Source: a bacterium
Lineage (GTDB): Bacteria > Patescibacteriota > Minisyncoccia > UBA6257 > JAUSGH01
DNA: 64,000 nucleotides
Direction: 5' to 3'
NCBI GenBank assembly: GCA_030649055.1
Contig: JAUSGH010000007.1
Location: 1,854 to 65,853, forward strand
Shown in pieces: positions 22,281 to 58,689 of this stretch. Positions within the stretch are counted from its first letter, which is position 1. Every line of letters begins with the position of its first letter. The position numbers were made by a program, and so were the translations under genes. Under the pieces are notes generated by a model that was not told the DNA's origin, did no database searches, and saw nothing but the letters and a program-made list of their open reading frames with translations.

Positions 22281-23807
22281 ATGAAAGGCTGTTTATTACT
22301 ACAACGACGGTTTGCAACCATCAGCCACGCGATTGCGCTTGCGCTGAAAGAAAAATACGGCATAACCGAATTCTGCGGCTACGTTTGCGTCCGCTCGGGT
22401 TTTGATTTCCTGAAATCCCAAAAAGACATCAACTACGGAACCTTACTGCTCGATGACGAACTTCAAAAAGATTACGTCAAAGAAAAACTTGATCCCGAGT
22501 ACCTCCACCACCTGGAAAAAGAATATGGCATCCCCAACCTGTGGCCGTACATTGCCTGCGACCGCGTCATCATGTTTAAACAACTGTTGCGCGAGTATCC
22601 GTACAACACGCCGATGTATACCCACGAAGAAATGTTGCGCATGCTCCAGGTGAAGGCGCGCGCGATCATTCATATGCTTGAGGAGGAAAAACCCGATTTC
22701 CTTTTCGCGAGCGTCGTCGGTTCCATGGGAGGAATGCTCCTCTATCACATCGCCAAAAAGAAAAACATCAAGGTTATTATTGCCGATATCGCCCGCATCG
22801 GCGAACTGTTTACGGTAAGCGATCATTACGCATATCACACATGGACTGAACAAATTTTTCAAGAACTAAAACGCACGGAACGACACAGCCCCCGTGAACA
22901 CGACGCGCAAACCTTCCTGAAAAATTTCCGGAAAGAGCCGGCGCCGTTCTTCGGAAAACTTTACGAAAAAGACCAGTTAGTTGACCGCCGTAGGAAGCTC
23001 CAATTTTTGAAACCTACTCATATATTCCGATCGCTCGCGTGGGTTTTACAGCTCACGATCGGCTATCTCAAAAATCCTCATCGCGACGACTATGAGGAAA
23101 TCAAACCCTGGCATTACATAATTGATCGGCTCAAAAACAAAGCGCGCCTACTCCGCGGCTTCCGCGATCTCTACAGTAATCCGGAACCGAATGAAGATTA
23201 TGCCTTTTTCCCGTTACAATATGAACCGGAAATTTCTATGCTGCTCTATGCTCCATTTTTTTCCGACCAATCGTACGTGATCCGACAAATCGCCCGCTCG
23301 CTTCCCGTCACATATAAACTTTATGTTAAGGACCATCCTTCAATGGTCGGATTCCGGACGAGAAGTTATTACAAGGAACTGCTGAAAATACCGAATGTCC
23401 GACTCATCAACCCTGTTATCAAAAGTTTCCCGTTAATCCAAAATTCAAAAATTGTGACAACAATTACGGGCAGTGCCGGCTGGGAAGCGGTATTGCTCAA
23501 AAAACCCGTCATCACGTTCGGTGATGTGTTTTACAACGCGTTAAGTACCGTGAAACACTGTCGGACTATTGACGAACTTCCTTATTTGATTAAAGAACAA
23601 CTCGAGTCAACGCGTTATAACGAACAAGAGCTGATCAATTACATTGCCGCCACGATGGAAGTTTCCGTTGAGGTGTCACTGCTCCGGCTTTGGGAACGGG
23701 AAATAGGAGATTTTGAAAAAGTGAAAAAAGGCATGGAGCCTGCGGCGGACTTGATTGCAAGAAGACTCGGCGTGAAGGCCGTACCGAGTGTTACCCCAAG
23801 AAATTAA
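22281..23807 (+). CDS. Capsule-polysaccharide-biosynthesis-family protein (KpsC/KpsS-like fold) candidate glycosyltransferase
   Basis: 508 aa. The C-terminal third (YVKDHPSMVGF...IVTTITGSAGWEAVLLKKPVITFGDVFY) resembles capsule-synthesis / CDP-glycerol-transferase-like retaining transferases. Sits next to the nonulosonic acid operon. Confidence 0.4.
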   Translation: MKGCLLLQRRFATISHAIALALKEKYGITEFCGYVCVRSGFDFLKSQKDINYGTLLLDDELQKDYVKEKLDPEYLHHLEKEYGIPNLWPYIACDRVIMFKQLLREYPYNTPMYTHEEMLRMLQVKARAIIHMLEEEKPDFLFASVVGSMGGMLLYHIAKKKNIKVIIADIARIGELFTVSDHYAYHTWTEQIFQELKRTERHSPREHDAQTFLKNFRKEPAPFFGKLYEKDQLVDRRRKLQFLKPTHIFRSLAWVLQLTIGYLKNPHRDDYEEIKPWHYIIDRLKNKARLLRGFRDLYSNPEPNEDYAFFPLQYEPEISMLLYAPFFSDQSYVIRQIARSLPVTYKLYVKDHPSMVGFRTRSYYKELLKIPNVRLINPVIKSFPLIQNSKIVTTITGSAGWEAVLLKKPVITFGDVFYNALSTVKHCRTIDELPYLIKEQLESTRYNEQELINYIAATMEVSVEVSLLRLWEREIGDFEKVKKGMEPAADLIARRLGVKAVPSVTPRN

Positions 23808-24483
23808 ACCGCGCGATGTGCCAAAGCGCGGCGACTCCGTCTTTCCAGCCGATCTTTTTTCCCTCCGCGTAACTGCGGCCCGCGTAAGAAACCGCGACTT
23901 CGTAAATGCGGAAGTGGTGCTTGGCAACGCGTGCGGTGAGCTCCACCTCAATACCGAATCGCCGCGATTTCAAACGCGGCGCGATTGCATCAACTACGTT
24001 TCGCGTAAACACTTTATATCCGACTTCCACATCGGAAAGGTTCAAGTTTGTGCATAGATTGGAAAAAAACGTAATAAAACGGTTGGCGAGATAATGATGA
24101 AAGTTGAAAATCCGGTGCGGCTTATTGCCTAAAAATCGCGTTCCGTACACGACATCAGCCAAACCGGAGCGTATTGGGGCGAGCAAATCCGGGTAGTCAT
24201 TTGGGTCATACTCCAAATCCGCGTCTTGGATAAGGACAATGTCGCCGCTCGCGTGTTCAAAGCCGGTTTTAACAGCGCCGCCCTTGCCGAAATTTTTCTC
24301 ATGAAAAATTACAACGATCTCCGGAATGCTTTTTAGAATTTCCCTCGTTTTGTCGGTTGAACCGTCATCAACAACGATGATTTCTTTTTCAATGTCCGCC
24401 AACGGAACTGCCTGAACGCGGCGAATAATTTCCGCGATGGTTTTTTCTTCGTTGTATGCCGGGATAATAACCGAGAGCTTCAT
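23791..24483 (-). CDS. GT2 polyprenyl-phosphate sugar synthase-like glycosyltransferase (DPM1/ArnC-like)
   Basis: 230 aa. LSVIIPAYNEE, IIVVDDGSTD, and the DXD motif IQDADLEYDP. Confidence 0.8.
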   Translation of the reverse strand: MKLSVIIPAYNEEKTIAEIIRRVQAVPLADIEKEIIVVDDGSTDKTREILKSIPEIVVIFHEKNFGKGGAVKTGFEHASGDIVLIQDADLEYDPNDYPDLLAPIRSGLADVVYGTRFLGNKPHRIFNFHHYLANRFITFFSNLCTNLNLSDVEVGYKVFTRNVVDAIAPRLKSRRFGIEVELTARVAKHHFRIYEVAVSYAGRSYAEGKKIGWKDGVAALWHIARFNFLG

Positions 24484-24491
24484 GAGAAAAT

Positions 24492-24695: not shown

Positions 24696-25280
24696 TCACT
24701 TCGTAACAAAAATCGTGAATCCCGAAGTTTGGTTTTTGCTTGGCACGAGCCAGTCCAATAATCGCGCAACTGGCGCAAAAACGCGGACGTAGGGCAAAAG
24801 GTACGCCACGGTCTCAAAAAATCCGCGCACCTTCACCATCTCTACCGACGAAAAATCTTTGAAGAGCATTTTTACTCCGTCTCCGGTGAACCGCCAATAG
24901 TCCGCGTAAAATCCCTTCTCCGCGTGATACGGAAAAAGAAACGGTACATAGATGAGCCCCAACCCTCCGGGCTTTAACACCCGTCGGAGCTCCGCGACAA
25001 CCCGAAAAGGATCTTCCACGTGCTCCAGCACCGACTTGCAAATCACGGCATCAAAACTTTCATCCTGAAACGGCAGGTTGTGCGCGTCGCCTTTGACTAC
25101 TCCAGCGGACTCATAATTCTTATCAATCACCACGTACTCGGTTTCCTTAAAAAGCTCGCGGTACGCCCCAAGCTGTTTTTGGAGCGGCGTTCCGCCGCCG
25201 ACGTCCAAAATCCGTTTCCTTTTCGCAATAAGCCGGATCTTCTCTTCAAAAAATTTTTCCCACGGGGCCATAGATTTCAT
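24696..25280 (-). CDS. Class I SAM-dependent methyltransferase
   Basis: 194 aa. Motif I ILDVGGGTP and the Methyltransf_11-like core. Confidence 0.7.
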   Translation of the reverse strand: MKSMAPWEKFFEEKIRLIAKRKRILDVGGGTPLQKQLGAYRELFKETEYVVIDKNYESAGVVKGDAHNLPFQDESFDAVICKSVLEHVEDPFRVVAELRRVLKPGGLGLIYVPFLFPYHAEKGFYADYWRFTGDGVKMLFKDFSSVEMVKVRGFFETVAYLLPYVRVFAPVARLLDWLVPSKNQTSGFTIFVTK

Positions 25281-25461: not shown

Positions 25462-26778
25462 ATGATGCTCACGCGCGAAGGAAAAATTATCCTGCTTCTT
25501 TTTGCGCTCGCGCTTCTCGTGCGCGTCGCGCTTTTTGGGGCGAACATTGCGGCACACGAAGGCGAACTGCTCCCGACAATTCTGAACTCTGAAGGATATT
25601 ACGAACTTGCGAATAACATCCTCGCCGGGCACGGATTCTCACAAAGCCCCGCGGCGCCATATGTGCCGGATTCGCTCCGCCCTCCGCTCTATCCGCTCTT
25701 CATCGCCGCATTCGTTGGACTTTCCGGAAGTTATTGGCCGGTCATCATCGCCCAAATACTGCTTGCGAGCGTTTTGCCGCTCCTCGCGCGGCGCATCGGT
25801 TTCCGCCTCACGCAAAATACGTTTGCCGGGAACGCGGTAGGCGTTCTGTTTGCCGTGGAGCCGGTGCTTGTGCGGCTCTCCGGGATTCTTCTCACCGAAA
25901 CGCTATTCCTCGCGTTGTTTCTGTCTTCCGTTATCACGTTCTTCAATTATCTTGATCGCGAAAAATTATCCGATCTTGCGGCAAGCGCGGCACTCCTCGG
26001 GCTCGCCACGCTCACGCGGCCGGTCACGCAATATCTTCCCGTTGTTATTATCGCGTTTCTCTTGTGGCATTTCCGTGGCGCGCTATCCCGGCGTGCCATG
26101 CTACATGTCGCCACATTCATCGCCGTCTTCGTTGTGGCGCTTTTGCCATGGCTCTACCGGAACGCTATCGTGTTCGGAAATCCGAGCGTCGCGAACACGC
26201 GCATCAGTAACTTTTACGGCTATTTTGCACCATCCGTTTTGGCGCTGGAACGCCATATCGGTTTTACCGAAGCACAACGCCAACTGTTCGCGGAAGACGG
26301 CGTACAGGATTACGGCGCGGTGACGCTCAAAGACGCGGAACATTTCACAAACCGGGCAAAAGCGATTATCAAAACCCATCCGAAGGAAACCGCAAAACTC
26401 CTCGGCATCACCACGTTTGCCTTTTTCACGCACGACGGGTACCTGGATGTACTTCAAGATCTCGGCTACATGAAGAATTTCTCGCGCACAATCCGCGCGC
26501 TCATCACAGGCCCCGGCATCATAATCCTCGCGGGAAGAATGTTTTGGACGCTCACAGCACTCCTCGCATTCCTCGGCACGTATCTCTTTTTCAAACGCGA
26601 AAAATTTCAGCCGAAGGCGCTTTTCGCCCTTCTCCTCATCACCTACTTCGCCGCAACCGCCGCAATTGTGGGCTTAGGCATCACCGCCCGCTACAGAGTC
26701 CCCGCAAACGTATTTATTGCCGCATTCGCGTTTTATGCTATCGCGCGCTGGCGTAAAACTCCGGAAGCCGCGAAATAA
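25462..26778 (+). CDS. GT-C membrane glycosyltransferase, family 39/83-like (ArnT/PMT-like), paralog 1
   Basis: 438 aa, ~11 TM helices. N-terminal periplasmic-loop pattern (G..Y.DS.RPPLYP) as in ArnT/PMT-type polyprenyl-phosphate-sugar-dependent transferases. Confidence 0.7.
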   Translation: MMLTREGKIILLLFALALLVRVALFGANIAAHEGELLPTILNSEGYYELANNILAGHGFSQSPAAPYVPDSLRPPLYPLFIAAFVGLSGSYWPVIIAQILLASVLPLLARRIGFRLTQNTFAGNAVGVLFAVEPVLVRLSGILLTETLFLALFLSSVITFFNYLDREKLSDLAASAALLGLATLTRPVTQYLPVVIIAFLLWHFRGALSRRAMLHVATFIAVFVVALLPWLYRNAIVFGNPSVANTRISNFYGYFAPSVLALERHIGFTEAQRQLFAEDGVQDYGAVTLKDAEHFTNRAKAIIKTHPKETAKLLGITTFAFFTHDGYLDVLQDLGYMKNFSRTIRALITGPGIIILAGRMFWTLTALLAFLGTYLFFKREKFQPKALFALLLITYFAATAAIVGLGITARYRVPANVFIAAFAFYAIARWRKTPEAAK

Positions 26779-28606: not shown

Positions 28607-30115
28607 TCACGCCGTCTCTGTCTTTAGCAATCGCATTTTTTCCGTCAACAGCACCAATCCCGCCGCGACAAAAATGAAATAGATCGGCTCAAATGCCATT
28701 CTCATCCGCGCGTCAATCGCGGCGCCAATAGGCAGCGTGACGACAACAAAGAAAAGGATAAGTGCCGCAAAGAAAAACGCAGAAATCCTCCGCCTTTCAG
28801 GCACCTCCTTTAAGAAAGGAGGAATCGGGGGCACTTCTCCCTTTCCTAAAGGGAGTACCCGAAGGCCGGTGAATTTTAAAAAACGAATCCAAAAAGGTGC
28901 CCGTGGGCTTGAGGGATTTGCAAAAAGCACCCAAGTGCCGCAGATGGCGCAAAACAACAAAAATGACCAAATGGCTCGCATAACGAATGGAATCACATAC
29001 GTCCCGCGTATATACGGAATAATCTCGCCGATTGCGCGCAACGGATGCTCTTGCAATAGCGCCATGGAAAGCGGAATCGGCGGCCGCTTCGGGTACGGTA
29101 GCAACCGCATTTCATTCAGCATCGTCAACAGATTGTCATGCGTAAAAATTGTATAGACGGAGAGCGGCTGAAGCAGCATCATTTGCAGCGGGTATTGTTT
29201 GAAAATCGCAAGCGCGCGTTTTTTAAGTTCCGGCGCGACCCGCGGGTCATACAACTCTTCGTCGGTACCGCGTGCCGTCACTCCATCGCGTCCGAGTTGT
29301 GTGAGAAAGTTATTAAATACGGGGTTAAATTGCTGATTCGTTGCCGCGGCGTATACCGTCGCCCCGAGGCGCGTGTACACGTTGTACCAACCCGACGTTG
29401 AAAGCGTAAACACGCCGAACACGCGTTCGTTGCGCATCATCCACGGGAAAATAATGAGGAATGAGGGGATGAGGAACAGCACGCAAGCCGCTATCGCACT
29501 TTTCCAATTGCGCCACGCAAGTGGAAAAATAAGGAAGATGATCACGATCGGCAAAAAATAAAGAAAGTACGGCCTCGTGATTGAGGAAATTGCGAAAAGC
29601 GCTCCCGCAACAACCGCGCGGCCGGGTGTTGGGATGTCCAAGTAGCGCACAACTGCCACCGCAAACAACGCAAGAAGAAAAATAAAAATGCCCTCGGTCG
29701 CGATACCGACTTGATGATAAATAAGATGCGGTTCAACGGCGGTCAAAAACCCCGCAACATACGCAACGCTCCTGCTCCCCGACGCCTTCCACGCGAGCCA
29801 GAGTATCATAACCGGCACGAGCGCGTTCAGAAATACTTGGAAAAGATTTGCCGGCCAAAACGTCCCGAACACTTTATAAAACACGGCGAGGAAAACAGGA
29901 TAACCGGGTGTGCGGTACGCATCCGGCGCGTACGGCGCGACAGCGCTCAACGAAAACCCGTGACCCTCGACGATATTTTTCGCAAGCGTCGTGTAATGCG
30001 TCGCGTCAACGAGATATAACCCCTCGGGTCCCGAACGCCAGATAAAAAAATCGAATGCGGCAAGGCGCAGGATGAATGCGAAAAGAAAAATGGTGATGAG
30101 CGCACGTTTATCCAT
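28607..30115 (-). CDS. GT-C membrane glycosyltransferase, family 39/83-like (ArnT/PMT-like), paralog 2
   Basis: Polytopic, ~13 TM helices, with the ArnT-like loop (Y.TLAKN...GHGFS...P.A...YRTPGYP). Start set at the internal Met (MDKRALI) because the longer ORF runs into repeat element 30134-30205. Confidence 0.7.
   Translation of the reverse strand: MDKRALITIFLFAFILRLAAFDFFIWRSGPEGLYLVDATHYTTLAKNIVEGHGFSLSAVAPYAPDAYRTPGYPVFLAVFYKVFGTFWPANLFQVFLNALVPVMILWLAWKASGSRSVAYVAGFLTAVEPHLIYHQVGIATEGIFIFLLALFAVAVVRYLDIPTPGRAVVAGALFAISSITRPYFLYFLPIVIIFLIFPLAWRNWKSAIAACVLFLIPSFLIIFPWMMRNERVFGVFTLSTSGWYNVYTRLGATVYAAATNQQFNPVFNNFLTQLGRDGVTARGTDEELYDPRVAPELKKRALAIFKQYPLQMMLLQPLSVYTIFTHDNLLTMLNEMRLLPYPKRPPIPLSMALLQEHPLRAIGEIIPYIRGTYVIPFVMRAIWSFLLFCAICGTWVLFANPSSPRAPFWIRFLKFTGLRVLPLGKGEVPPIPPFLKEVPERRRISAFFFAALILFFVVVTLPIGAAIDARMRMAFEPIYFIFVAAGLVLLTEKMRLLKTETA
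28783..28856. repeat. Palindromic element, family D (AAATCCTCCGCCTTTCAGGCACCTCCTTTA-NN-AAAGGAGGAAT plus a second hairpin CTCCCTTTCCTAAAGGGAG), located inside the coding sequence of paralog 2
   Basis: Read directly. Copies at 56479-56522 and 57260-57337. Carries Shine-Dalgarno-like AAAGGAGGA. Translates in-frame as FLKEVPERRRIS here and as KSSAFQAPPLAKEE in 55928..57304. Confidence 0.65.
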
Positions 30116-30133
30116 AATATTTTCTATATGTAG

Positions 30134-30205
30134 CCCTTCGATAAACTCAGGGACTATTATTTCCTGAGCAAAGGTCCGATGAACATCGGACCGCAATCGA
30201 AGGAA
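30134..30205. repeat. Palindromic element, family C (CCCTTCGATAAACTCAGGG ... TCCTGAG-N27-TCGAAGGA)
   Basis: Read directly, between two minus-strand membrane protein genes. Confidence 0.6.
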
Positions 30206-30211: not shown

Positions 30212-31978
30212 TTATAACTGATAAAGATAAATATCGTTATCAAAATCCCCGATAAGCAGCGGGCGATGAAGCGACTCATAGACCCAATCTTTCAATGGCC
30301 CGTCGGAGGCAACGTAATCAACGCGATAGCGCCGCAATGCCTCAAGAAAATCCTCATTCATAAACTCCGTAAAATCCTGTTCGCGCGCGCGAAGCAACCC
30401 ATCAATCCATCGCTCGTCAAAAAATACAAGATCGCGCCAATCCCGGCGAAAATGATCGCGGATCCACGTGCGATGTTCTATTAAAAACGCGCGGACGGTA
30501 CGCGACGTCACACCGTTCACGCGCATGAGCGTCAAAATATTATGCAGCACGCGCGCTTCCGCGTTATAACTCGCTTGCATCCACCCGTTCGCGTAGTCAT
30601 TGCACTGCGTAAATGCGGGTATGAGCCGCGTCAGCTTTTCCTCCACGCCTTCAGCGGAAAGCACGACGCAATCGTCAGGAGCATTCGCACGAAGCCACGA
30701 AAGCACGCCGTCGTATGTTTGAATGGAACGGAACTCCGGAATTTGATACGCGTATGTCCGCGCCGCCATAACGCCGTAGAAAAGCGCGAACGCCGAAACG
30801 CCGAGCATGCCCGCGGCCCATAATCTCGGAAGCCGCGGCCGAAACACGAAAGCGAGCGCCGCCATAACGGCAACAACGGCAAGCGGCGTGGTGTATTGCA
30901 CGAAGTGGTACGGCCAGATCGTTTTTCCGGTTATGATCTGCTGATTCAAGGCCCAAAGTCCGCCCAAAATAAGCGCGGAGCAAAACCACCACCGGTGAGG
31001 AAGCGCTACTCCCTCTCGTTTGCTCTTGCGGTACGCGGCGATAAGACATGAGATGAATATGAGCAACGCGAGAAATAACACCTTGTTCGCAATGGGCGCG
31101 TGCGTCAAGAGCAACCCGTTCTGCGCGTATATCCGGTCAGCTTCAGGAATCGCCGCCACCGCGCGCATGTTGTACCAATACGGAGCGGCAAGCATGAACC
31201 CGACGGCAACGGCGAGCGCGAGCCGTTTAAGAAATGTGTAGTCACGCAAGACAAACGCAATGGCGCCGAGAACTCCGGCAACCGAAAGCGCCATCCCCCA
31301 TGTAAAAAAATATCCGAACATCAGCGCGAACACGGCACCCGCGGCAACAACGACGCCAACGCTCGGGCGGCGCATCAGTTGCCACAACAAAAGCAAGAAT
31401 GTAAAAAGCAGTATCGCGCCCGTCACGGGATTCACCGGCCTGGCCCAAAGCGACCACGCGAAAAATTGCGCCTTGCCGTTTAAAACCGGCAAAAGACTAT
31501 TGTAGTCCACAAGACCGTAGCCGGTAGTCGCGAGCAATCCTCCGGCAACGCTGGCGAGCTTTCGCGCGTACTCCGGTTCCGCATCGGTCAGTCGGTAAAG
31601 CAATATATAAATCAAAAAAAACAAAACCGCGGGAAAGAAAAATTTCGCGAAAATAAGCGCGGAGACAAACGATGCGCCAAAGAACACCGGCCACATATAC
31701 GCATATTCGCCGATGGGATACAAGAATGGCGGGGCGTTTTTGTATTCATATATAAATGGCGAGCTCACCCAACCATGGCCATCCAGAATCTCGTGCATGC
31801 GCGCGACATAAAAACTGTTGTCATCCAGCGTCAAAAGATGAGCGCCTTTATAATCAGCGCCTAACGCGCGGATGGCCAACAGTTGTGGAGCAACCGCAAG
31901 TCCACCGACGACAACAGCAAAAAGAAGCGCGATCCAATGGCGCTGAAAGAAAAATTTTATACGTGCAGCGTAACTCAT
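30212..31978 (-). CDS. Large polytopic membrane protein with a C-terminal soluble domain; putative GT-C-type glycosyltransferase or glycan polymerase
   Basis: 588 aa, ~14 hydrophobic helices in the first 400 aa, then a ~180-aa hydrophilic domain. No named motif recognised. Confidence 0.4.
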   Translation of the reverse strand: MSYAARIKFFFQRHWIALLFAVVVGGLAVAPQLLAIRALGADYKGAHLLTLDDNSFYVARMHEILDGHGWVSSPFIYEYKNAPPFLYPIGEYAYMWPVFFGASFVSALIFAKFFFPAVLFFLIYILLYRLTDAEPEYARKLASVAGGLLATTGYGLVDYNSLLPVLNGKAQFFAWSLWARPVNPVTGAILLFTFLLLLWQLMRRPSVGVVVAAGAVFALMFGYFFTWGMALSVAGVLGAIAFVLRDYTFLKRLALAVAVGFMLAAPYWYNMRAVAAIPEADRIYAQNGLLLTHAPIANKVLFLALLIFISCLIAAYRKSKREGVALPHRWWFCSALILGGLWALNQQIITGKTIWPYHFVQYTTPLAVVAVMAALAFVFRPRLPRLWAAGMLGVSAFALFYGVMAARTYAYQIPEFRSIQTYDGVLSWLRANAPDDCVVLSAEGVEEKLTRLIPAFTQCNDYANGWMQASYNAEARVLHNILTLMRVNGVTSRTVRAFLIEHRTWIRDHFRRDWRDLVFFDERWIDGLLRAREQDFTEFMNEDFLEALRRYRVDYVASDGPLKDWVYESLHRPLLIGDFDNDIYLYQL

Positions 31979-32043: not shown

Positions 32044-32099
32044 GTCATTATACCCTGAGCTTGTCGAAGGGTTCGCGATTACTCCTCCCGTTAATGACT
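32044..32099. repeat. Short palindromic element with GTCATTA...TAATGAC termini and a CCCTGAGCTTGTCGAAGGG core (family B/C hybrid), overlapping the 3' end of the GT2 gene
   Basis: Read directly. Confidence 0.5.
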
Positions 32100-33013
32100 T
32101 CCGACACAATCCCGATGGGCCGATGTTTCACTTCTTCATAAATCCTCGCCAAGTATTCCGCGATAACCGAAAGCGAGAGTAGCTGTACCGCGCCCAAAAA
32201 TAACATGAATACGAACATGGTGAGGTATCCTCGCGGCGCCGGGAAAAAGAAATACAACGCGGTATAGACGACAATCGCAATGCCCGCGAGAACCGTCACG
32301 ATTGCCGCGACATACGAAATAAGCTCCAGCGGTTTATACGAAAATGCGACAATCATCCGCTTCGCCCATTTGAAAAGCTCAAAAAAACTGTTAGTGCTTA
32401 CTCCCGAATACCGTTCATCACGAGTATACGGAACTCCGATAGAACGGAAGCCAACATACGCACGCATACCGCGAATATAACGATCAACTTCGCCAAAGCC
32501 ATTGATGACGTCGAGCGCCTTCCGGCCAATGAGCGAAAACTCGCCCGCATCCAATGGAATGTCGATGTAAGACATCTTGCGGAACACGCGGTAAAACGCT
32601 TTATAGAAAAACCGCATGAGCAAACTCGCCTTCCGCCGCGTCCGACGCCCATACACGATGGTGTATCCCGCAAGCCATTGCTTCACAAATTCCGGAAAAA
32701 GCTCCGGCGGGTCCTGAATGTCACCGTCCAAAAGAATCACCGCGTCGCCGTCCGCGTAACGCATGCCGGTGGTATACGCCACCTGTCCGCCGAAATTGCG
32801 CGAATGATTCAATACAATGAGATGTTTGTCTTTTGCCGCGATCTCGCGAAGTACGTCCAGGGCGTTATCCGGACTCGCATCGTTCACGTAAATAAGCTCC
32901 CAATTCGGCGTAATGCCGCGCATCACTTCCGTGACACGCCGGTGCATTTCTTTGACACTCCCCTCGTCATTCCAGCAAATAACGATGATGGAAATTTTTT
33001 TATCGGTGAGCAT
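32048..33013 (-). CDS. GT2 polyprenyl-phosphate glycosyltransferase with C-terminal membrane anchor (GtrB/ArnC-like)
   Basis: 321 aa. ISIIVICWNDEGSV, DXD motif LLDGDIQDPP, two C-terminal TM helices. Confidence 0.8.
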   Translation of the reverse strand: MLTDKKISIIVICWNDEGSVKEMHRRVTEVMRGITPNWELIYVNDASPDNALDVLREIAAKDKHLIVLNHSRNFGGQVAYTTGMRYADGDAVILLDGDIQDPPELFPEFVKQWLAGYTIVYGRRTRRKASLLMRFFYKAFYRVFRKMSYIDIPLDAGEFSLIGRKALDVINGFGEVDRYIRGMRAYVGFRSIGVPYTRDERYSGVSTNSFFELFKWAKRMIVAFSYKPLELISYVAAIVTVLAGIAIVVYTALYFFFPAPRGYLTMFVFMLFLGAVQLLSLSVIAEYLARIYEEVKHRPIGIVSEVINGRSNREPFDKLRV

Positions 33014-36248: not shown

Positions 36249-36266
36249 CTTCTTACTCCATACTTC

Positions 36267-37181
36267 TTACTTCTTCCCACGCCATGCAATATAACGGTCA
36301 ATACCCTCATAAATGTTTACTGCCGACTCCCAACCAAGCAACCGCTTTGCTTTAGATGAATCCGCGATCATGTTGGACGCCTCTCCAGGCCTACCGTCGG
36401 CGTAAATCACTTTTCCATTCAATTTTTTCGCGACGTACTCGGCGATGTCTTTGATACGCGTCGCGTGACCGCTCCCAAAATTTACAACCTCGCCACGAAG
36501 CTCGGGGTGGTCCAAAAGCATTTCATACGCGCGAACGACGTCGGAAATATATACATAATCACGCGTCTGCTCCCCCGTACCGAACACGGTAATCGGTTTG
36601 CCCGCCAACGCGCGGCCGACAAAAATCGGAATCACGGCGCCGAATGTCCCCTCCTTCTGTCGCTCACCAAAGATATTAAAAAATCGGGCGATGGTCACCG
36701 GCGTTTTATACGTTTGCGCGTACGCGAAACACAGCCGGTCAGCGGCAGCTTTTGAAGCGGCGTACGGGCTCATCGGACGGAGTTCGGCATTTTCCGCGAC
36801 CGGCGCCCGTTCCGGCAAACCATACACCTCGCACGAAGACGTGAGGATCATCCGCGTTCCGGTTTTTTTGACTGCTTCAAGCACGTTGTATGTGCCGCGC
36901 ACATTCACCTCCATCGTCTCCCACGGGTGGGCAATTGACTCGTCCACGTTGACTCTAGCGCCAAGATGAAAAACAACATCCTTCCCGCGCATAGCCTTTT
37001 CGGTCACTTCGGCATCGGTGATTGAACCCCAAAGCACGCGACAACCTTCAAGATATTGTTCGTTGCCGGAGGCCTGCGGCGTAAGGGTGTTTAACACCGT
37101 CACCGCGTGCCCTAAACCAAGCATCTTTTGCGCCAAATGCGTCCCCTGAAACCCAGCCCCACCGGTGATAAGAATGTTCAT
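36267..37181 (-). CDS. NAD-dependent epimerase/dehydratase (SDR, GalE/UDP-sugar 4-epimerase-like)
   Basis: 304 aa. ILITGGAGFQG Rossmann motif and catalytic YAASK. Confidence 0.8.
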   Translation of the reverse strand: MNILITGGAGFQGTHLAQKMLGLGHAVTVLNTLTPQASGNEQYLEGCRVLWGSITDAEVTEKAMRGKDVVFHLGARVNVDESIAHPWETMEVNVRGTYNVLEAVKKTGTRMILTSSCEVYGLPERAPVAENAELRPMSPYAASKAAADRLCFAYAQTYKTPVTIARFFNIFGERQKEGTFGAVIPIFVGRALAGKPITVFGTGEQTRDYVYISDVVRAYEMLLDHPELRGEVVNFGSGHATRIKDIAEYVAKKLNGKVIYADGRPGEASNMIADSSKAKRLLGWESAVNIYEGIDRYIAWRGKK

Positions 37182-46465: not shown

Positions 46466-46500
46466 CAATATTTGCTTAATTGCTTAATTGTTTTATTGCT
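46466..46500. repeat. Short tandem octamer repeat (GCAATWAA-like units; reverse complement reads GCAATAAAACAATTAAGCAATTAAGCAA) at a gene junction
   Basis: Read directly. Similar octamer runs at 39169-39192 (GCAATAAA x3) and 50636-50672. They encode ...AIKQ termini. Confidence 0.5.
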
Positions 46501-48122
46501 TTAACGACCATCGTTGGTCCATTCGACCGAAGCGCGAACATTTTCAATAGTCCACCGCCGAAACCGTTCGTGATGTCATCGGAGTTATCCGCAGAGCCCG
46601 AAAATATTCCAACAGTTTCGCCTAAGCTCGCGAGATGGTCGGAAATGCCATACCCTGCAACAAATTCCGGACTATACAGAAGATACGCGTAATCATTCGC
46701 CTGCATATATTCGGAGAGATGGTCGGTGAATGGGCCGGGCTGCGCGGCGAAAAGATTCAGCGCGTGGTAGCGCGGCGAGGGCAGCAGCTCCTCCGGCAAC
46801 GCTTCAGTCGCCACGTCCGCGCTCCGAAGCGAGCCGGGGTCAAGGCGTCGCTGTTCTTGAACCGCATCGGCGGTCGTGGGAATCCGCATCAGGCGCGCGA
46901 ATGTAACCACTTTTTCTCCGGCTGGAACATTTGCCGCAGTCCACTCTGCCGCCTGCACGCGCGTATCATTTTTGAGAAGCAGCGAGTCAAACCGCAGCAC
47001 TCCCGCCGCCATCGTTCCAAACACAACGACACCAAGGCCATACGCAAGAAACCTTGAACGCGCCGCAATCCACATAGTTGCTTCGTGCATCCCGTACCCC
47101 GCGACAAGCGCGAACAGCGGATAAAGCATCAGGATGTACCGGTCCATGTGAAAGAAGAACAAGTAGAAGACGGCGATATAGGCGAAAGAAAAGAGCGACG
47201 CAACCGCAAAAAACCTGCGCTTGCGGAGGAATGCGTAAAGCAACCCCGCAATAATAAACACGAAAAACGCCGACTCCGTTTCAATGAGCTTTTTTGCATA
47301 AAATCCGTATCCCGCGAAAAATCCAATAATGCTCTTTGCTCCCCCAACAACATTCTCCGCGTGCACCACAAGTCCCCCGGGATAAAGCGCGTAAGCCAGT
47401 GCCACAAGTGCCGTAAAAAGCAGCGCGCTCCCGTAAACCCACCGCTCCCTCAAAGACAGCCGGTCATACAACAAAAACCACAGCGCGATAAACAACGCCG
47501 AAAGTCCGGCCTGGTAGTTGATACCGACACCTATGCCGGCAAAAAGCGTGGCGAGGAGGTAGCGCCGCCGCGCCGCAATATCAGCGCGGGAAAGCACGTA
47601 CATGACGAGCGCAAAGAAAAACGTTGCCGGAACCCAATGTCGCGCCCAATGCGAAAAATTTGCATGGAGAAAACTTAATGCCAAAAATGCGGCCGAATAT
47701 AGCGCGGGCGCTTCCGCCGCAAAAACATTCTTCCCGATTTTATAAACAAGCCAAACCGTCGCGGTGCCGAGGACGACACTCGCGAGACGCGCGGCAATAA
47801 AAAGCGCCGAGGGGTCAAGCGTTGTTGCGGAAATAAACTGCGGGAACGTCCCGGAAAACAGCAAATATTTTATCACGAGCACGGGAATAAAAAGTACAAG
47901 GTAGATGTAGGAAAGATATGGCGGAAAATAGAGAATGCGCCCGAACTCCGCGGCATGAAGCGCCGGCACTAGGCTACGGAGCTCCATCATCTTTAGCGCT
48001 CCAAAAATAAACGGCGGCTCGTCCGAGACAAGCCACATCGGCAAACCGTAAGAAATCCCCGCAAGACGCACGAAAAACGCAACCGCGATAATCAAAAGTA
48101 ACGCGATTTTGAAGCGAGACAT
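46476..48122 (-). CDS. GT-C membrane glycosyltransferase, family 39/83-like, paralog 4
   Basis: 548 aa polytopic. N-terminal SYGLPMWLVSDEPPF and ArnT/PMT-like helices. Confidence 0.65.
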   Translation of the reverse strand: MSRFKIALLLIIAVAFFVRLAGISYGLPMWLVSDEPPFIFGALKMMELRSLVPALHAAEFGRILYFPPYLSYIYLVLFIPVLVIKYLLFSGTFPQFISATTLDPSALFIAARLASVVLGTATVWLVYKIGKNVFAAEAPALYSAAFLALSFLHANFSHWARHWVPATFFFALVMYVLSRADIAARRRYLLATLFAGIGVGINYQAGLSALFIALWFLLYDRLSLRERWVYGSALLFTALVALAYALYPGGLVVHAENVVGGAKSIIGFFAGYGFYAKKLIETESAFFVFIIAGLLYAFLRKRRFFAVASLFSFAYIAVFYLFFFHMDRYILMLYPLFALVAGYGMHEATMWIAARSRFLAYGLGVVVFGTMAAGVLRFDSLLLKNDTRVQAAEWTAANVPAGEKVVTFARLMRIPTTADAVQEQRRLDPGSLRSADVATEALPEELLPSPRYHALNLFAAQPGPFTDHLSEYMQANDYAYLLYSPEFVAGYGISDHLASLGETVGIFSGSADNSDDITNGFGGGLLKMFALRSNGPTMVVKAIKQLSN

Positions 48123-55927: not shown

Positions 55928-57304
55928 ATGAAAAGCCGCGCTATCCTCTATATCCTCCTCGCCGCCGCGATCCTTGTCGCAGTCGCGGGATTTGTTGCTG
56001 ACTTCAAAAATACCGCCTTTTATGGCGGCGTGGACCTGCGTAACCGCGTCACCGCCGCGCGTGTCGCTCAAGAGTTAAAACAAGACCCGTATTTTTATAA
56101 ATGGTCGCCCAAAGAAAGCGACCGCTATCTTGATCCATCAGACAACACAGCAATCCCCGTCGCGCGCGTGACGGTGCCTCCGACCGTATTGCTTTTCCAA
56201 AACCTCATCTCGGCGCTCCCCTACGGCACCCAACGGTGGATTTGGTTTGCATTCCAATGGGCCGCGCTTATTGCGTCGCTCGCACTCCTCGCACAATACG
56301 TCTATCGCGTCAGCGAAGAATCATGTGCAAAGCGCAACCGTTTACTCGTCATAACGCTTGGATTGCTATTCATTTCCGGAAGTTCTTTTTGGCGGCTCCA
56401 TGTTGAACGCGGACAAATATATGTGTGGTATGTATCGCTCTTCAGCGCAGCGCTTTATTTATACAGTCGAGCAGAAGAAAAATCCTCCGCCCTTCAGGCA
56501 CCTCCTTTAACAAAGGAGGAATATGAGTGGCTTCCGCTCGCCGCGAGCGGACTCATTCTCGGCTACCTCATCAGCTTGCGCCCGCCGTTTATTTTTGCAA
56601 TTATCCCGTTTCTGCTTTATAAAAAATTCAAATTTGTATCATTCGTCGCTGCCGGCGCGCTAACAAGCGTCCTTATCACCGGATTATTTTTCCCGTTCGC
56701 GCTATGGAAAAGCTACGAACAATCGGCCACGTTTCAAGGCGCGATGCGTACGGATGCGGCAACGAACTTCACATCAGTTGGCGTTGATGTCGCCGAAGGC
56801 ATGAACATTCACGAATTCTTGAGCGTGCCCGGAGAAGACAGCTCGCTCCAACGCATCATCCGTGGTGCAACAGGACAATGGGTAGGAAGCGCGACGCTGG
56901 CGCTGCTGCTTGTTATCACAACCGCGCTTCTTGCGTTTTTTATGTATCGTTTCCATCCGTCGCTTTCTGTAGGGACAAATGATTTATTTCTTGCCGGCAT
57001 CGCATTTACCATGCTCGCGGAATTATTCATTCCCGCTCCGCGCTGGCCGTACGCGGACGTCATCTGGCTTATTCCTTTGGCATTGCTCGTACAAAAACTA
57101 AGCACAACGACACGCGGCACGTTACGCAGCACCGTGCTCGGCCTCATGCTTACGGGACTCATGCTTAATACCGGAGTACATGGCATCTCCCGGCTTACAC
57201 TCCTTGGCGAAGGTCTGTTTATCGGGGCATTGCTTCTTGCGCTTTTGAGTAAGGAAAAGAAATCCTCCGCCTTTCAGGCACCTCCTTTAGCAAAGGAGGA
57301 ATAA
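55928..57304 (+). CDS. Polytopic membrane protein (DUF2029/GT87-like or other GT-C-type candidate), containing two in-frame family-D element copies
   Basis: 458 aa, ~12 TM helices. Family-D element translated as EEKSSALQAPPLTKEE (internal) and EKKSSAFQAPPLAKEE (C-terminus). Confidence 0.45.
   Translation: MKSRAILYILLAAAILVAVAGFVADFKNTAFYGGVDLRNRVTAARVAQELKQDPYFYKWSPKESDRYLDPSDNTAIPVARVTVPPTVLLFQNLISALPYGTQRWIWFAFQWAALIASLALLAQYVYRVSEESCAKRNRLLVITLGLLFISGSSFWRLHVERGQIYVWYVSLFSAALYLYSRAEEKSSALQAPPLTKEEYEWLPLAASGLILGYLISLRPPFIFAIIPFLLYKKFKFVSFVAAGALTSVLITGLFFPFALWKSYEQSATFQGAMRTDAATNFTSVGVDVAEGMNIHEFLSVPGEDSSLQRIIRGATGQWVGSATLALLLVITTALLAFFMYRFHPSLSVGTNDLFLAGIAFTMLAELFIPAPRWPYADVIWLIPLALLVQKLSTTTRGTLRSTVLGLMLTGLMLNTGVHGISRLTLLGEGLFIGALLLALLSKEKKSSAFQAPPLAKEE
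56479..56522. repeat. Family D element copy (AAATCCTCCGCCCTTCAGGCACCTCCTTTAACAAAGGAGGAAT) inside the coding sequence
   Basis: Read directly. Confidence 0.65.
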
Positions 57305-57337
57305 CAACAGGACGCATTCTCCCTTTTCTAAAGGGAG
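57260..57337. repeat. Family D element copy with second hairpin (CTCCCTTTTCTAAAGGGAG), spanning the stop of 55928..57304 and the 3' end of 57328..58689
   Basis: Read directly. Confidence 0.65.
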
Positions 57338-58689
57338 GGAACCGCTTGCGGTGAGGGATTTTTTCGCGTCCAACAAAGTAGCGTAATCGAATAAATCGCA
57401 AGCGTAAACAATATCGGATTCAACGGAATCCGCAGACGCGCGCCGCTGATGGGCGAAGAAAGCAACGCGTAAAGGAGAATTGCCACGACAAAAAATATCG
57501 TGGTTTTTTTGATTCTCCCTTCACGACGCCATTCAACAAACGGACTCACAATTGCGAGTAGCGCGACGATAATAAAAAAGAAGTTTGCAATCAGCGCGAG
57601 TAAAAGTACCGGATGCGCGGCAACGCGCCCCGCTGCGATAACAAAACGAAACGCACCGATGTCGTCGTAAAGTGCCTGCTCATCTTCATATCTAAACCCC
57701 AGCTGCGGGATAGAATAAAAAAAGTTATTATACGCCGCGTTTGTGAAAAGGCTCGGCATGTGCGTCACGTGAAACACCCCATAGGCGAAGGGGTATGCGC
57801 CGATAAACCGCACCGCCTTTGCTTGTATCTCGGGAATGCGCGATACGTCATAGCGGAAATTTACATCCAAAAGATCGTCGGGCGCAAGCGCCACCCCGCG
57901 CTCTGCAAAAAGTTTTGGGAAGTGCGCCTGAAGCCACAGAGAAAAATCCCCGGCGTTATACGCGTAAAGGTTGTATCCGGATTGCGAAGAAAAATCCCAC
58001 GTGTGAAGCGTGAGCCGATTGCGGATAATCCAGGGCGAAAGTATGACGAAGAAAACCGTAAGCGGCACAAGAAGCGCCCTCCATTCGCGCAACCGCGATC
58101 CCGCGAGCACATACGCGAACGGAATCATCACGACAAAAAACAAGGCGAATTGTTTTAAGAGTGCCGCAATCGCAAGTGCTACGGCGCCAACGAGAAGATC
58201 GCGAGGTTTCGCGCGCTGCACATAGAACGCAAAATTAAACATCGCAACAATAAACAGCAAACTAAAAAATGACTCGGTCATAATTTGTCCTCCGATAAGC
58301 GCGCCAAAAGGCTCAATGGCGAACATGAGCGCCGCGGCAAACACGATTTTTTCCGGAAAAATCCGCCGGCCAAGGAGAAATACGAGTACCGCGGCGCCGG
58401 ACATCACAATTGCCTGAATTGCCGCAAGGACATACCAGGAAATCCCAAACTTTACGAACGGCAAAAGTATCAGCGGATAAAGTGGCGTCCGGAAACTGTC
58501 GGGGCTCGGCGGCACGTCATAGCCCATAGAGTAAATGCCGTGGGTCAAAAGATTTTTTGCCGCCTGGATGTACGTGTAGCTATCGTGGTAGAGTAAAGAA
58601 TTTTCATCGGAAAAGGCAAAAAGAAAAACAACACGCGTGAGGAGCGCAATGGAAAAGATAAGTATGGCGGCGCGTTTCATGAGAAACAA
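57328..58689 (-). CDS. GT-C membrane glycosyltransferase, family 39/83-like, paralog 5
   Basis: 453 aa polytopic. Y.DS..Y...A.NLL.HG.YS......P...RTPLYP loop typical of ArnT/PMT-like enzymes. Confidence 0.65.
   Translation of the reverse strand: MFLMKRAAILIFSIALLTRVVFLFAFSDENSLLYHDSYTYIQAAKNLLTHGIYSMGYDVPPSPDSFRTPLYPLILLPFVKFGISWYVLAAIQAIVMSGAAVLVFLLGRRIFPEKIVFAAALMFAIEPFGALIGGQIMTESFFSLLFIVAMFNFAFYVQRAKPRDLLVGAVALAIAALLKQFALFFVVMIPFAYVLAGSRLREWRALLVPLTVFFVILSPWIIRNRLTLHTWDFSSQSGYNLYAYNAGDFSLWLQAHFPKLFAERGVALAPDDLLDVNFRYDVSRIPEIQAKAVRFIGAYPFAYGVFHVTHMPSLFTNAAYNNFFYSIPQLGFRYEDEQALYDDIGAFRFVIAAGRVAAHPVLLLALIANFFFIIVALLAIVSPFVEWRREGRIKKTTIFFVVAILLYALLSSPISGARLRIPLNPILFTLAIYSITLLCWTRKNPSPQAVPSL

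Follow-up and report, generated by a model that had tools for sequence, protein, structure and literature searches.

A glycan island of a Patescibacteria genome encodes seven GT-C glycosyltransferases and five polyprenyl-phosphate-sugar synthase-like proteins

Glycosylation outside the membrane with lipid-linked monosaccharides has been described in several bacterial systems. In the GtrA/GtrB/GtrC systems of Shigella and Salmonella and in the GT136 three-component systems for pentofuranose (PMC11127046), a GT2 or other synthase produces the polyprenyl-phosphate sugar, which a GT-C enzyme then transfers, outside the membrane, to a finished glycan. In monoderm streptococci, the pairs GtrB/PgtC2 and PgfS/PgfM1 glycosylate the Ser/Thr-rich regions of extracytoplasmic proteins (PMC12041528). 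The mycobacterial PpgS/Rv3779, Ppm1/PimE and Emb/Aft/Mpt enzymes include short GT2 proteins without transmembrane (TM) helices and many GT-C enzymes, among them GT87, with the GT-C enzymes working on a single envelope glycan at the outer side of the membrane. ArnT (GT83) of the Arn pathway and the PMT enzymes (GT39) have the GT-C_A fold, PMT_2 Pfam family membership, an acidic loop-1 motif and the same lipid-monophosphate donor logic. No paper on biochemical work with any CPR homolog of the enzymes described below was found in the literature search.

The stretch of DNA analysed here (the window, 64,000 nucleotides) comes from a CPR/Patescibacteria genome and covers the distal part of a glycan island that spans at least 64 kb. 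Pfam, structure prediction, profile comparison and PDB and NCBIfam matches identify seven GT-C enzymes and five GT2 proteins resembling polyprenyl-phosphate-sugar synthases in this island, while a Gtr system has one of each. The genes and family types listed by the initial annotation were confirmed, all genes being real and intact. The island looks like the known machinery of extracytoplasmic surface decoration, present here in unusual number. It probably encodes several lipid-monophosphate-sugar glycosylation modules that decorate a surface acceptor from outside. The host, unlike those of the Gtr systems, is a CPR bacterium without outer membrane or O antigen; CPR, the likely host phylum, is not known to have LPS or lipid A. 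The GT-C genes, named below by their first coordinate, are the following.

25462..26778, forward strand: GT-C of PMT_2 type, subgroup 1, 438 residues, without a large soluble domain (PMT_2, 44.9 bits)
28607..30196, reverse strand: GT-C of PMT_2 type, subgroup 1, 529 residues (PMT_2, 26.7 bits, marginal)
30212..31978, reverse strand: predicted GT-C whose family has neither a Pfam nor an NCBIfam model, 588 residues, about 13 TM helices and a C-terminal alpha/beta domain
41921..43399, reverse strand: GT-C of PMT_2 type, 492 residues, W-x-D-E-G loop-1 motif (PMT_2, 37.0 bits)
46476..48122, reverse strand: GT-C of PMT_2 type, 548 residues, C-terminal soluble domain (PMT_2, 43.6 bits)
55928..57304, forward strand: GT-C of family GT87, 458 residues (PF09594, 38.4 bits)
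57328..58689, reverse strand: GT-C of PMT_2 type, subgroup 1, 453 residues, adjoining RmlA/RmlB (PMT_2, 34.9 bits)

The five proteins first annotated as GT-C paralogs (25462, 28607, 41921, 46476 and 57328) all score above the PMT_2 gathering score of 26.1 (PF13231), 28607 marginally. The latter was accepted because of its BLASTP match to 25462 (27.5% over 414 residues, E 2e-38), which 57328 also matches (E 3e-21). Gene 28607 lies immediately downstream of the methyltransferase-GT2 fusion gene described below, and a 74% identical ortholog occupies the same position in the relative L002. Two further polytopic proteins had been set apart from the GT-C proteins; both are real, but they belong to the same class, since 55928 is a GT87 member (cutoff 25) and 30212 a predicted GT-C enzyme, which brings the total to seven. 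Gene 55928 is convergent with 57328, and this pair is kept in a relative. The set consists of PMT_2-type enzymes, a GT87 enzyme and one unnamed GT-C family, and contains neither GtrC nor GT136 members.

The label "GT39/ArnT-like" holds for the GT-C_A fold and the PMT_2 family only. Membership in GT39 or ArnT was rejected: the PMT model PF02366 stays below cutoff in all five PMT_2 proteins, the MIR domain is absent from all five, none of the GT-C proteins has a sequence-level match in the PDB, solved ArnT and PMT included, and the host phylum is thought to be without LPS. The aminotransferase-like gene beside 46476, once considered ArnB-like, encodes instead an RfbH-like PLP enzyme (a 3-dehydrase), and ArnA and ArnD of the Arn pathway are absent.

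It is important to consider the 30212 protein separately. It has no Pfam match even at E<=5 and no NCBIfam match. In a Foldseek search with its AlphaFold2 model (pLDDT 91.4, pTM 0.91), the leading hits are all GT-C_A structures, namely STT3/OST, AftA, PglB and ArnT (E 8e-7 to 2e-4, TM about 0.47-0.50), and comparison of its family with that of 25462 by hhalign gives Prob 96.3% and E 1.9e-9. Structure prediction and profile comparison thus make 30212 a GT-C enzyme. The model of 25462 (pLDDT 90) likewise matches GT-C structures, the best being PglB, AglB, STT3, ArnT and Pmt4 (E 2e-6 to 5e-3), so that the structure prediction proposed by the initial annotation supports the fold for both proteins. 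In the 30212 family E78, K80, W178, R180, N183 and P184 are invariant, and its named homologs all come from CPR. It is a new, previously unrecognised GT-C family of CPR, and the other transferases are new representatives of a kind already known.

The best structural matches of 30212, STT3 and PglB, and its C-terminal soluble domain, a feature also of OSTs, raise the question of whether 30212 acts not on monosaccharides but as an oligosaccharyltransferase or ligase, transferring a glycan already assembled on lipid diphosphate to protein or cell wall in a single step. Elsewhere in CPR the family is found in glycan clusters beside GT4 and Capsule_synth-like genes, and the GT2 neighbour is not constant; in the genome L006 there is no GT2 within 8 kb. 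However, the WWDxG motif occurs in 0 of 51 family members, there is no STT3 Pfam match, and ArnT and AftA give the same TM-scores as the oligosaccharyltransferases. The profile kinship to the PMT_2-type 25462 family and the position of the gene next to the GtrB-type synthase 32048, both in the window and in L002, also argue against this role, which we regard as unlikely.

The loop-1 Asp/Glu signature expected by the initial annotation is conserved in alignments of four families. Position 44 is D or E in 24/24 homologs of 25462, with Y46 in 23/24. D34 and E35 (31/31) are invariant in the homologs of 46476, as are R161 and W163, and W38, D40 and E41 in the 40 homologs of 41921 (40/40 for D40/E41), down to 23% identity. 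The 30212 family has E78 and K80 in 51/51 members and an acidic residue at 52-54 in 51/51. The acidic residues are therefore invariant in three families (as D/E in one), with at least one per member in the fourth. In the models of 25462 and 30212 they immediately precede the short helix that comes first after TM1, where PimE, ALG6, ArnT and PglB carry their catalytic Asp (PMC12041525). The motif D53-x-x-x-Y57 of 55928 resembles D58/Y62 of PimE (PMC12041525); similar motifs are D36-x-x-x-Y in 57328 and D64-x-x-x-Y, after TM1, in 28607. The four families are linked profile-to-profile with their acidic motifs aligned, for example 46476 with 41921 (hhalign Prob 96.2%, DE motifs aligned).

The "expansion of paralogs" is not recent. 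Pairwise identities are at most 28%, while each paralog has a 70-80% identical ortholog in a syntenic relative. Judged from these comparisons, the GT-C genes form at least four anciently separated subfamilies, related at the profile level only.

The donors would be supplied by five GT2 proteins.

23791..24483, reverse strand: synthase-like GT2, 230 residues, without TM helices
27178..28593, reverse strand: fusion of an N-terminal methyltransferase and a C-terminal synthase-like GT2, 471 residues (Pfam domains)
32048..33013, reverse strand: GtrB/PgfS-type synthase, 321 residues, two C-terminal TM helices
34332..35054, reverse strand: synthase-like GT2, 240 residues
50644..51420, reverse strand: synthase-like GT2, 258 residues, heading a block of GT2, SDR, RfbH-like gene and GT-C 46476

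Their description as DPM1/ArnC-like is borne out: the best PDB and NCBIfam matches of all five are polyprenyl-phosphate glycosyltransferases (GtrB, ArnC, DPMS). Ordinary GT2 proteins align with the nucleotide-binding half only, whereas 23791, 32048 and 34332 align essentially end to end. Nearly the whole of 23791 is covered by DPMS (5MLZ, 3e-20), ArnC (1e-19) and GtrB (3e-14), and its best NCBIfam models, AglJ, ArnC, PgfS and PpgS, all score below the equivalog cutoff. The full-length matches of 32048 are GtrB sll0501 (5EKP, 4e-64) and ArnC (6e-33); those of 34332 are DPMS (1e-23) and ArnC (7e-20), near full length. Only three PDB entries, DPMS and two of ArnC, match 50644, over about two-thirds of the protein; its best NCBIfam models are PpgS, AglJ and dolichyl-phosphate hexose transferase. 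The methyltransferase fusion noted in 27178, a feature unlike the Gtr systems, was confirmed. Its GT2 domain matches AglJ (93 bits, residues 237-468) and is 30.7% identical to 23791 over the full domain, with DPMS and ArnC as best PDB matches covering just the N-terminal half. Because all five GT2 proteins stay under the NCBIfam equivalog cutoffs, none of them can be given a specific sugar.

The initial annotation had each GT-C gene paired with a synthase. Strict adjacency is found for 27178/28607 and 32048/30212. Two more pairs are near neighbours: 23791 and 25462 are divergent with a methyltransferase gene in between, and 50644 and 46476 point the same way, separated by two sugar-modifying genes. 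However, no GT-C gene adjoins 34332, and no synthase-type GT2 adjoins 41921, 57328 or 55928. With five synthases for seven GT-C enzymes the relationship is not one-to-one. The transfer of GT2-made donors by GT-C enzymes on the outer face is supported in another way, by natural fusions in the 41921 family, in addition to the conserved loop-1 acids. Six members are single GT2+PMT_2 polypeptides (P0246, P0252, P0254, P0262, P0278 and P0294) and three are GtrA_DPMS_TM+PMT_2 polypeptides (P0210, P0258 and P0269). In five of the six synthase-like fusions the best window match of the GT2 domain is 34332 (27-29% identity, full length); in P0254 it is second, behind 23791. These domain architectures connect synthase, flippase and GT-C functions and are consistent with the mechanism proposed below.

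The other genes of the island bear on the origin of the sugars and on the acceptor.

1..545, reverse strand: Thr/Ser/Gly-rich repeat protein, secreted or anchored, N-terminal 181 residues; the gene extends past the window
900..3203, reverse strand: polytopic Wzy_C protein (O-antigen ligase / O-OTase type) with C-terminal TPR repeats (Wzy_C, 74.5 bits; many TPR families)
6642..8123, reverse strand: Wzx/MOP-family flippase, the only flippase candidate of the window (Polysacc_synt_3, 213 bits)
24696..25280, reverse strand: SAM-dependent methyltransferase, 194 residues, between GT2 23791 and GT-C 25462 (Methyltransf_11, 66 bits)
33100..34263, reverse strand: cytoplasmic GT4 glycosyltransferase (Glycos_transf_1, 93 bits)
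35166..41924, block without assigned strand: sugar-precursor genes, namely WecB-type 2-epimerase, SDR, DmpF/DmpG, ALS/YerE-like ThDP enzyme and second SDR
43483-44667, reverse strand: GT4 glycosyltransferase, between GT-C 41921 and GT-C 46476
44604-46463, reverse strand: AsnB-type amidotransferase, between the same two GT-C genes
48142-49419, reverse strand: RfbH-like PMP-dependent dehydrase for sugar-nucleotide tailoring (RfbH, 395.8 bits; cutoff 423)
49707-50678, reverse strand: SDR for sugar-nucleotide tailoring (weak matches, dTDP-glucose dehydratase class)
58756..60550, reverse strand: RmlA-like nucleotidyltransferase and RmlB-like 4,6-dehydratase

We infer the following scheme for the donors, their flipping, the acceptor and the sequence in which the sugars are added. 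In the cytoplasm, RmlA/B, the WecB-type 2-epimerase, the SDRs, the RfbH-like dehydrase, the ThDP enzyme, the amidotransferase and the methyltransferases would produce unusual nucleotide sugars. At the inner membrane face, each of the five GtrB/ArnC/DPMS-class GT2 proteins would load one sugar onto polyprenyl phosphate. The lipid-linked sugars would then be flipped by some transporter. The window, unlike the Gtr systems, contains no GtrA gene, with no small GtrA-like ORF of four TM helices anywhere in it, and has the MOP/Wzx protein. Outside, the seven GT-C enzymes would use these donors to add sugars stepwise to the acceptor. The first juxtamembrane helix would carry the base, an acidic residue, at its tip. 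The same logic has been characterised experimentally in the Gtr-type and pentofuranose systems (PMC11127046) and in streptococci, where GtrB/PgfS and a GT-C enzyme modify Ser/Thr-rich regions (PMC12041528); PgfS is also the best NCBIfam match of 32048. The most likely acceptor would be the nonulosonic-acid-containing glycan that the Wzx/Wzy_C genes of the island build, surface proteins rich in Ser/Thr, or both. The Wzy_C-TPR protein (900-3203) is a candidate ligase or oligosaccharyltransferase for the island glycan, and for it and the Ser/Thr-rich protein (545->1) the roles of acceptor or machinery suggested earlier are plausible. No initiating phosphoglycosyltransferase was seen within the window.

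Behind a signal-anchor, the Ser/Thr-rich protein, encoded at the island end, has a stretch in which Ser+Thr make up 35%, compared with 10% in the proteins of the window overall. Some or all of the GT-C enzymes might act in the manner of PMT or PgfM1/PgtC2 directly on such secreted or surface proteins, placing the first as well as later sugars; this differs from decoration of the glycan in the acceptor only. The PMT_2 membership with PMT-like DE loop-1 motifs agrees with direct O-glycosylation, as does the closeness of 32048 to PgfS, which partners a GT-C enzyme on Ser/Thr-rich regions (PMC12041528). The GT2 protein 60703, which has homologs fused to GT-C enzymes, is also similar to SunS and GmaR, both of which glycosylate proteins. 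However, the transferases of Pgf and PgtC2 type are members of YfhO, a family other than PMT_2 (PMC12041528), and the 222 bits that 32048 reaches with PgfS, its best NCBIfam model, fall far short of the 500 required as equivalog cutoff. The PF02366 and MIR results above and the complete Wzx/Wzy_C pathway, an obvious source of a glycan acceptor, make direct protein glycosylation the less likely choice.

The excess of GT-C enzymes (7) over donors (5) is shared with mycobacteria, as is the presence of GT87, to which PimE, a PPM-dependent mannosyltransferase, belongs (PMC12041525). The best structural matches of 30212 include AftA, and the short TM-less GT2 proteins resemble PpgS- and Ppm1-type synthases. 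This might suggest that the seven GT-C enzymes polymerise, building and branching a polymer outside from lipid-linked monosaccharides in the style of lipomannan, lipoarabinomannan or arabinogalactan, instead of adding single side-branch sugars. Orthology is not supported, since the PpgS model, whose cutoff is 370, gives the island GT2 proteins 56-83 bits. The island also has no arabinan, mannan or lipid-anchor genes (none of PimA type was seen) and belongs to another phylum. There is no processivity signal in the sequences, and the two cytoplasmic GT4 enzymes, a GT2, Wzx and Wzy_C suffice for a conventional repeat-unit pathway. Extracytoplasmic polymerisation is thus a doubtful explanation, and modular decoration of a surface acceptor is preferred.

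The conservation of the locus agrees with such modules. All 12 enzymes (7 GT-C and 5 GT2) are intact with zero frameshifts; the frameshifted or pseudogenised paralogs considered by the initial annotation were not found, and each of the genes is matched by a full-length ortholog in a relative. The seven GT-C enzymes and five synthases are kept in identical order in a relative at approximately 70-93% amino-acid identity. The methyltransferase 24696 is 92% identical and in the same position in a relative, the order of the GT4 and AsnB-type genes (43483..46463) is the same, and the sugar-precursor block 35166..41924 is kept in the relative L009. Together with the conserved catalytic residues, this makes it very improbable that the genes have no common function and are independent modules, some decaying, gathered in a recombination-prone glycan island. 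The island is nevertheless a mosaic, and its inserted non-glycan genes are not alike between island and relative. Inserts of mobile or defence type vary between relatives, with GIY-YIG versus NYN, and BRO-N/PDC-S13 with an E1-like gene versus ParE; a transketolase pair is found only in L002.

The GT-C genes of the window, named by their start positions, are as follows:

25462, plus strand, PMT_2 protein
28607, minus strand, PMT_2 protein
30212, minus strand, 588-aa membrane protein
41921, minus strand, PMT_2 protein
46476, minus strand, PMT_2 protein
55928, plus strand, GT87 protein
57328, minus strand, PMT_2 protein

All genes listed in the initial annotation are present as intact open reading frames at the coordinates it assigned. 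Its five GT-C paralogs were confirmed by Pfam, since each of them exceeds the gathering score of PMT_2 (PF13231), with 28607 as a marginal case (26.7 against 26.1 bits). The total is different. Protein 55928 belongs to GT87 (PimE-like), with PF09594 above its gathering score (38.4 bits, cutoff 25). Protein 30212 has no NCBIfam match and no Pfam match even at E<=5. Its AlphaFold2 model, built with 51 homologs, has a pLDDT of 91.4 and a pTM of 0.91. Foldseek against the PDB gave 16 significant matches for this model, every one of them a GT-C_A enzyme, namely STT3 of yeast, human and dog, AftA, PglB and ArnT (E 8e-7 to 2e-4; TM approximately 0.42-0.50, except one weaker match at 0.35). The profiles of the 30212 and 25462 families align over 236 columns (hhalign Prob 96.3%, E 1.9e-9). 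The Pfam results, the models of 30212 and 25462 and this profile match together show that there are seven GT-C enzymes in the window, not five.

The model of 25462 has a pLDDT of 90 and its top Foldseek matches are exclusively GT-C; at E<=1e-3 the models of 25462 and 30212 matched nothing but GT-C_A structures. Profile links to the 25462 family were found for 41921 (hhalign Prob 96.8%) and 46476 (Prob 79%). Family alignments were used because single sequences against a broad alignment gave too weak a signal (Prob 0.5-4%). When the 25462-family profile and the sequences of 46476 and 41921 were searched against the PDB, no meaningful match was obtained, so that evidence of the fold was required. 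The GT-C set has the GT-C_A fold, defined by 8-13 TM helices and an N-terminal TM1-7 module that can be superposed, together with the juxtamembrane helices, on solved enzymes of this fold; the modelling and the Foldseek comparison covered two proteins, 25462 and 30212, and for 55928 the sole basis is the Pfam GT87 match.

The family names proposed initially were not retained. For GT39, PF02366 is either absent from the PMT_2 proteins or scores 16.4-19.8 bits against a cutoff of 22.7; Pfam found no MIR or PMT_4TMC domain in the GT-C proteins, and there was no PDB sequence match to PMT. The description as ArnT-like, understood as membership of ArnT/GT83, also fails, with no NCBIfam match and no PDB sequence match to ArnT. 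An Arn-like operon at 46476-51420 was rejected because the PLP enzyme 48142 is RfbH-like (RfbH 396 bits, ArnB 101 bits); neither the formyltransferase nor the deformylase of an Arn operon is present.

The initial annotation would have been abandoned if the membrane proteins lacked the catalytic signature of GT-C enzymes in loop 1. In this superfamily the catalytic base is an acidic residue that is conserved in the first extracytoplasmic loop, where JM1 has its tip. Acidic residues are conserved there in the four GT-C families aligned. In the 25462 family, position 44 is Asp or Glu in 24 of 24 sequences and Tyr46 occurs in 23 of 24. Residues Asp34 and Glu35 are invariant in the 46476 family (31/31), as are Trp38, Asp40 and Glu41 in 40 sequences of the 41921 family, with identity down to 23%. 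In the 51 members of the 30212 family, Glu78, Lys80, Trp178, Arg180, Asn183 and Pro184 are invariant, position 66 is Asp in 49 and Glu in two, and at least one acidic residue lies at 52-54 in every member. For 28607, 57328 and 55928, a DxxxY motif at the loop-1 site was read from one sequence each; by inspection, D53xxxY57 of 55928 resembles Asp58/Tyr62 of PimE. In both models, 25462 and 30212, the conserved acidic residues are located immediately before the first short helix after TM1. PimE Asp58 occupies this position, as do its aspartate counterparts in ALG6, ArnT and PglB (PMC12041525).

The appearance of STT3 and PglB among the structural matches of 30212 raises the alternative that this protein is an OST-like ligase, a reading which changes the role of one enzyme. 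Assignment to the STT3/PglB/AglB-type oligosaccharyltransferases is not supported, because the WW[DE]xG motif is found in none of the 51 family members and Pfam is silent, and a ligase role seems quite improbable.

The synthase-type GT2 genes are 23791, 27178 (fused to a methyltransferase), 32048, 34332 and 50644, and the best curated and structural matches of all five are polyprenyl-phosphate glycosyltransferases. Protein 32048 carries two C-terminal TM helices and matches the solved GtrB sll0501 (4e-64) and ArnC (6e-33) over its full length. For 23791 and 34332, the matches to P. furiosus DPMS and ArnC (1e-19 to 1e-23) extend over almost the complete protein. In the PDB, 50644 matches nothing but DPMS and two entries for ArnC, over residues 9-177 of its 258 (about two-thirds). 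The PDB match of 27178 is weaker and covers half of the domain; its full-domain matches are NCBIfam AglJ and, by BLAST, 23791. Membership of the class is judged by a GT-A domain whose acceptor-side half also matches solved polyprenyl-phosphate glycosyltransferases. On this sequence evidence all five are predicted members, 27178 over the full domain through AglJ and 23791 alone. The pattern is absent from the control GT2s 9257 and 60703. No GT2 reaches an equivalog-level NCBIfam cutoff (best 222 against 500 for PgfS, and 121 against 325 for AglJ), and therefore no sugar can be named. The control GT2 60703-61581 (minus strand) resembles the protein-glycosylating SunS and GmaR (PDB E 1e-7 to 1e-6).

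It was claimed that each GT-C gene is paired with a synthase. This holds for 27178/28607 and 32048/30212, which are adjacent and co-directional, while 34332, 41921, 57328 and 55928 have no direct partner. A methyltransferase gene lies between the divergently oriented 23791 and 25462, and 50644 and 46476 flank an SDR and the RfbH-like enzyme. The term expansion is also misleading, as the paralogs are linked to each other at the profile level only, with a maximum pairwise identity of 28% (BLASTP). BLASTP places 25462 in one subgroup with 28607 (E 2e-38) and 57328 (E 3e-21), at approximately 27% identity, and leaves 41921 and 46476 separate. A related metagenomic contig contains orthologs of each paralog with 70-80% identity, and orthologs from other CPR lineages show 40-50%. 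Judged from these comparisons, the paralogs are ancient.

A library-wide HMMER search with 41921 returned 788 cluster representatives, several of them longer than 41921. Six of these homologs carry an N-terminal GT2 domain, for which 34332 is the best match in the window in five of six (27-29% identity, full length). Two have a 60703-like GT2 domain (P0232 and P0236, also N-terminal) and three have an N-terminal GtrA/DPMS_TM domain. A cluster look-up of the fusion proteins yielded hardly any taxonomic information. These fusions unite synthase, flippase and GT-C functions in single polypeptides of the family. Since a 34332-like GT2 is fused with a 41921-type GT-C, the two locally unpaired genes are tied together. 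A lipid-phosphate-linked sugar as the putative GT-C donor is supported indirectly by the GT2 and GtrA fusions. Concrete enzyme pairs for testing are available: 27178/28607, 32048/30212, 34332/41921 (via the fusions) and 50644/46476. Domain fusions could be used more widely for matching orphan synthases to orphan GT-Cs.

The entire window is a glycan island, with the following components:

900-3203, Wzy_C-TPR protein
6642-8123, Wzx, a MOP-family protein and candidate flippase
9928-23807, complete-looking nonulosonic-acid pathway: PseB-like protein, DegT aminotransferases, GNATs, NeuB, CMP-transferase, WbuX/HisH/HisF amidotransferase
16289 and 22281, two putative transferases of TIGR04396/BFO_1060/Capsule_synth type
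37221-41924, plus strand, DmpF/DmpG (acetaldehyde dehydrogenase, aldolase), ALS/YerE-like ThDP enzyme, SDR
48142-49419, minus strand, RfbH-like 3-dehydrase, near the DmpF/DmpG block
elsewhere, two GT4s, WecB-type 2-epimerase, RmlA/B, several SDRs, AsnB-type amidotransferase

The WbuX/HisH/HisF amidotransferase suggests an acetamidino group. The DmpF/DmpG block and the RfbH-like enzyme may together lead to a branched-chain 3,6-dideoxy (yersiniose-like) sugar; a relative shares this conserved gene set, and a Magasanikbacteria locus likewise contains the ThDP enzyme.

The relative is JGI Ga0209514_10000454. It keeps the complete set of seven GT-Cs and five synthases in the same order at approximately 70-93% identity, and its non-glycan inserts are not the same as in the window. 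Retention of the ordered set with differing inserts indicates selection on the set and argues against pseudogenisation, in agreement with the initial annotation. All named homologs belong to CPR/Patescibacteria: Harrisonbacteria (46476, 78%), Magasanikbacteria, Giovannonibacteria, Portnoybacteria and Niyogibacteria. A GTDB genome scan with a narrow alignment matched a single genome, a Candidatus Magasanikbacteria MAG.

These observations allow us to propose, as the probable reading, several Gtr-like modules. Cytoplasmic synthases would charge polyprenyl phosphate with tailored sugars, the lipid-sugars would be flipped across the membrane, and the GT-Cs would attach them outside to the presumed acceptors, the island's own glycan and/or Ser/Thr-rich proteins. 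The system would work like known three-component glycosylation systems, except that a local GtrA gene is absent: PF04138 matched none of the window proteins scanned, and a search of all frames for a GtrA-like ORF (<=260 aa, >=3 TM segments) gave two spurious overlapping ORFs, although a GtrA domain is fused to 41921 homologs. In pentofuranose systems, a MOP/MATE flippase performs the flipping of lipid-sugars (PMC11127046).

A signal-anchor and a Ser+Thr content of 35%, against a background of 10%, characterise the protein whose minus-strand gene starts at 545. In streptococci, Ser/Thr-rich regions are glycosylated by GtrB/PgfS and GT-C systems (PMC12041528). Direct protein O-glycosylation by the GT-Cs, which differs from the Gtr-like reading mainly in the acceptor, is possible, if rather unlikely. 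The PimE-like 55928 and the number of GT-Cs bring to mind a mycobacterial-style extracytoplasmic assembly line, which taken as a rival has a low likelihood. It can be extended to a doubtful joint reading in which seven GT-Cs and at least five lipid-linked monosaccharides elaborate a nonulosonic-acid-bearing O-glycan. Some of these monosaccharides would be methylated or branched deoxy sugars, and the Wzy_C-TPR enzyme would link the O-glycan to surface proteins rich in Ser/Thr. This reading would make the 588-aa protein the founder of a new glycosyltransferase family specific to CPR, would have the lipid-sugars flipped without GtrA, and would mean that a large conserved island of an ultra-small CPR bacterium is given over to the process.

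Gtr-like modules represent a kind of system that is already known. The new features are the occurrence of this system in a CPR genome and its multiplicity there, the methyltransferase-synthase fusion, the lack of GtrA locally, and a GT-C family (30212) for which neither Pfam nor NCBIfam has a model. This family is a candidate new glycosyltransferase family with a high-confidence model and clear residues for mutation. A literature search on GT-C enzymes in CPR/Patescibacteria found nothing relevant. These bacteria are thought to live attached to other microbes, and to our knowledge their surface chemistry is essentially unknown. An island in which seven transferases acting on the outer side and five lipid-sugar synthases are conserved suggests that the surface glycan is to a large extent completed beyond the membrane.

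Some further features of these loci were observed. In three other CPR loci (L006-L008) the 588-aa family is repeatedly flanked by methyltransferases, with a GT4 beside it in all three and radical-SAM/B12 enzymes and a 500-536-aa Capsule_synth-like protein in two each; no description of this recurring glycan-cluster theme was found in the literature. The Wzy_C-TPR gene and Wzx are separated by three minus-strand genes (3245-6594) similar to those for citryl-CoA lyase and citryl-CoA synthetase (citrate-synthase C-terminal; CoA-ligase alpha; ATP-grasp and citrate-binding domains), with a 23S-rRNA-IVP protein alongside. These genes are unexpected in a CPR glycan cluster and may be the source of an acyl substituent. 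Adjoining Wzx, 8243-9199 (plus strand) encodes 318 aa with approximately seven TM segments and no family match, and its product could be a polymerase, acyltransferase or flippase; the overlapping minus-strand ORF 8186-8578 is probably spurious.

Two sites within the island hold genes of another kind. The insert at 51424-55771 (minus strand) has a higher GC content (0.55-0.57) and encodes a BRO-N protein (351 bits against the PADLOC candidate-defence model PDC-S13), a 220-aa ThiF/E1-like protein, and 129-aa and 491-aa proteins without matches. In the relative this slot is filled by a ParE toxin and a small ORF, and it therefore looks like a variable defence/mobile islet. A small GIY-YIG nuclease gene at 26788-27105 (minus strand) lies between two GT-C modules, and an NYN-domain gene (11459-12163 of locus L002) occupies its exact slot in the relative; the site looks like a hotspot of small genes of a selfish or defensive kind.
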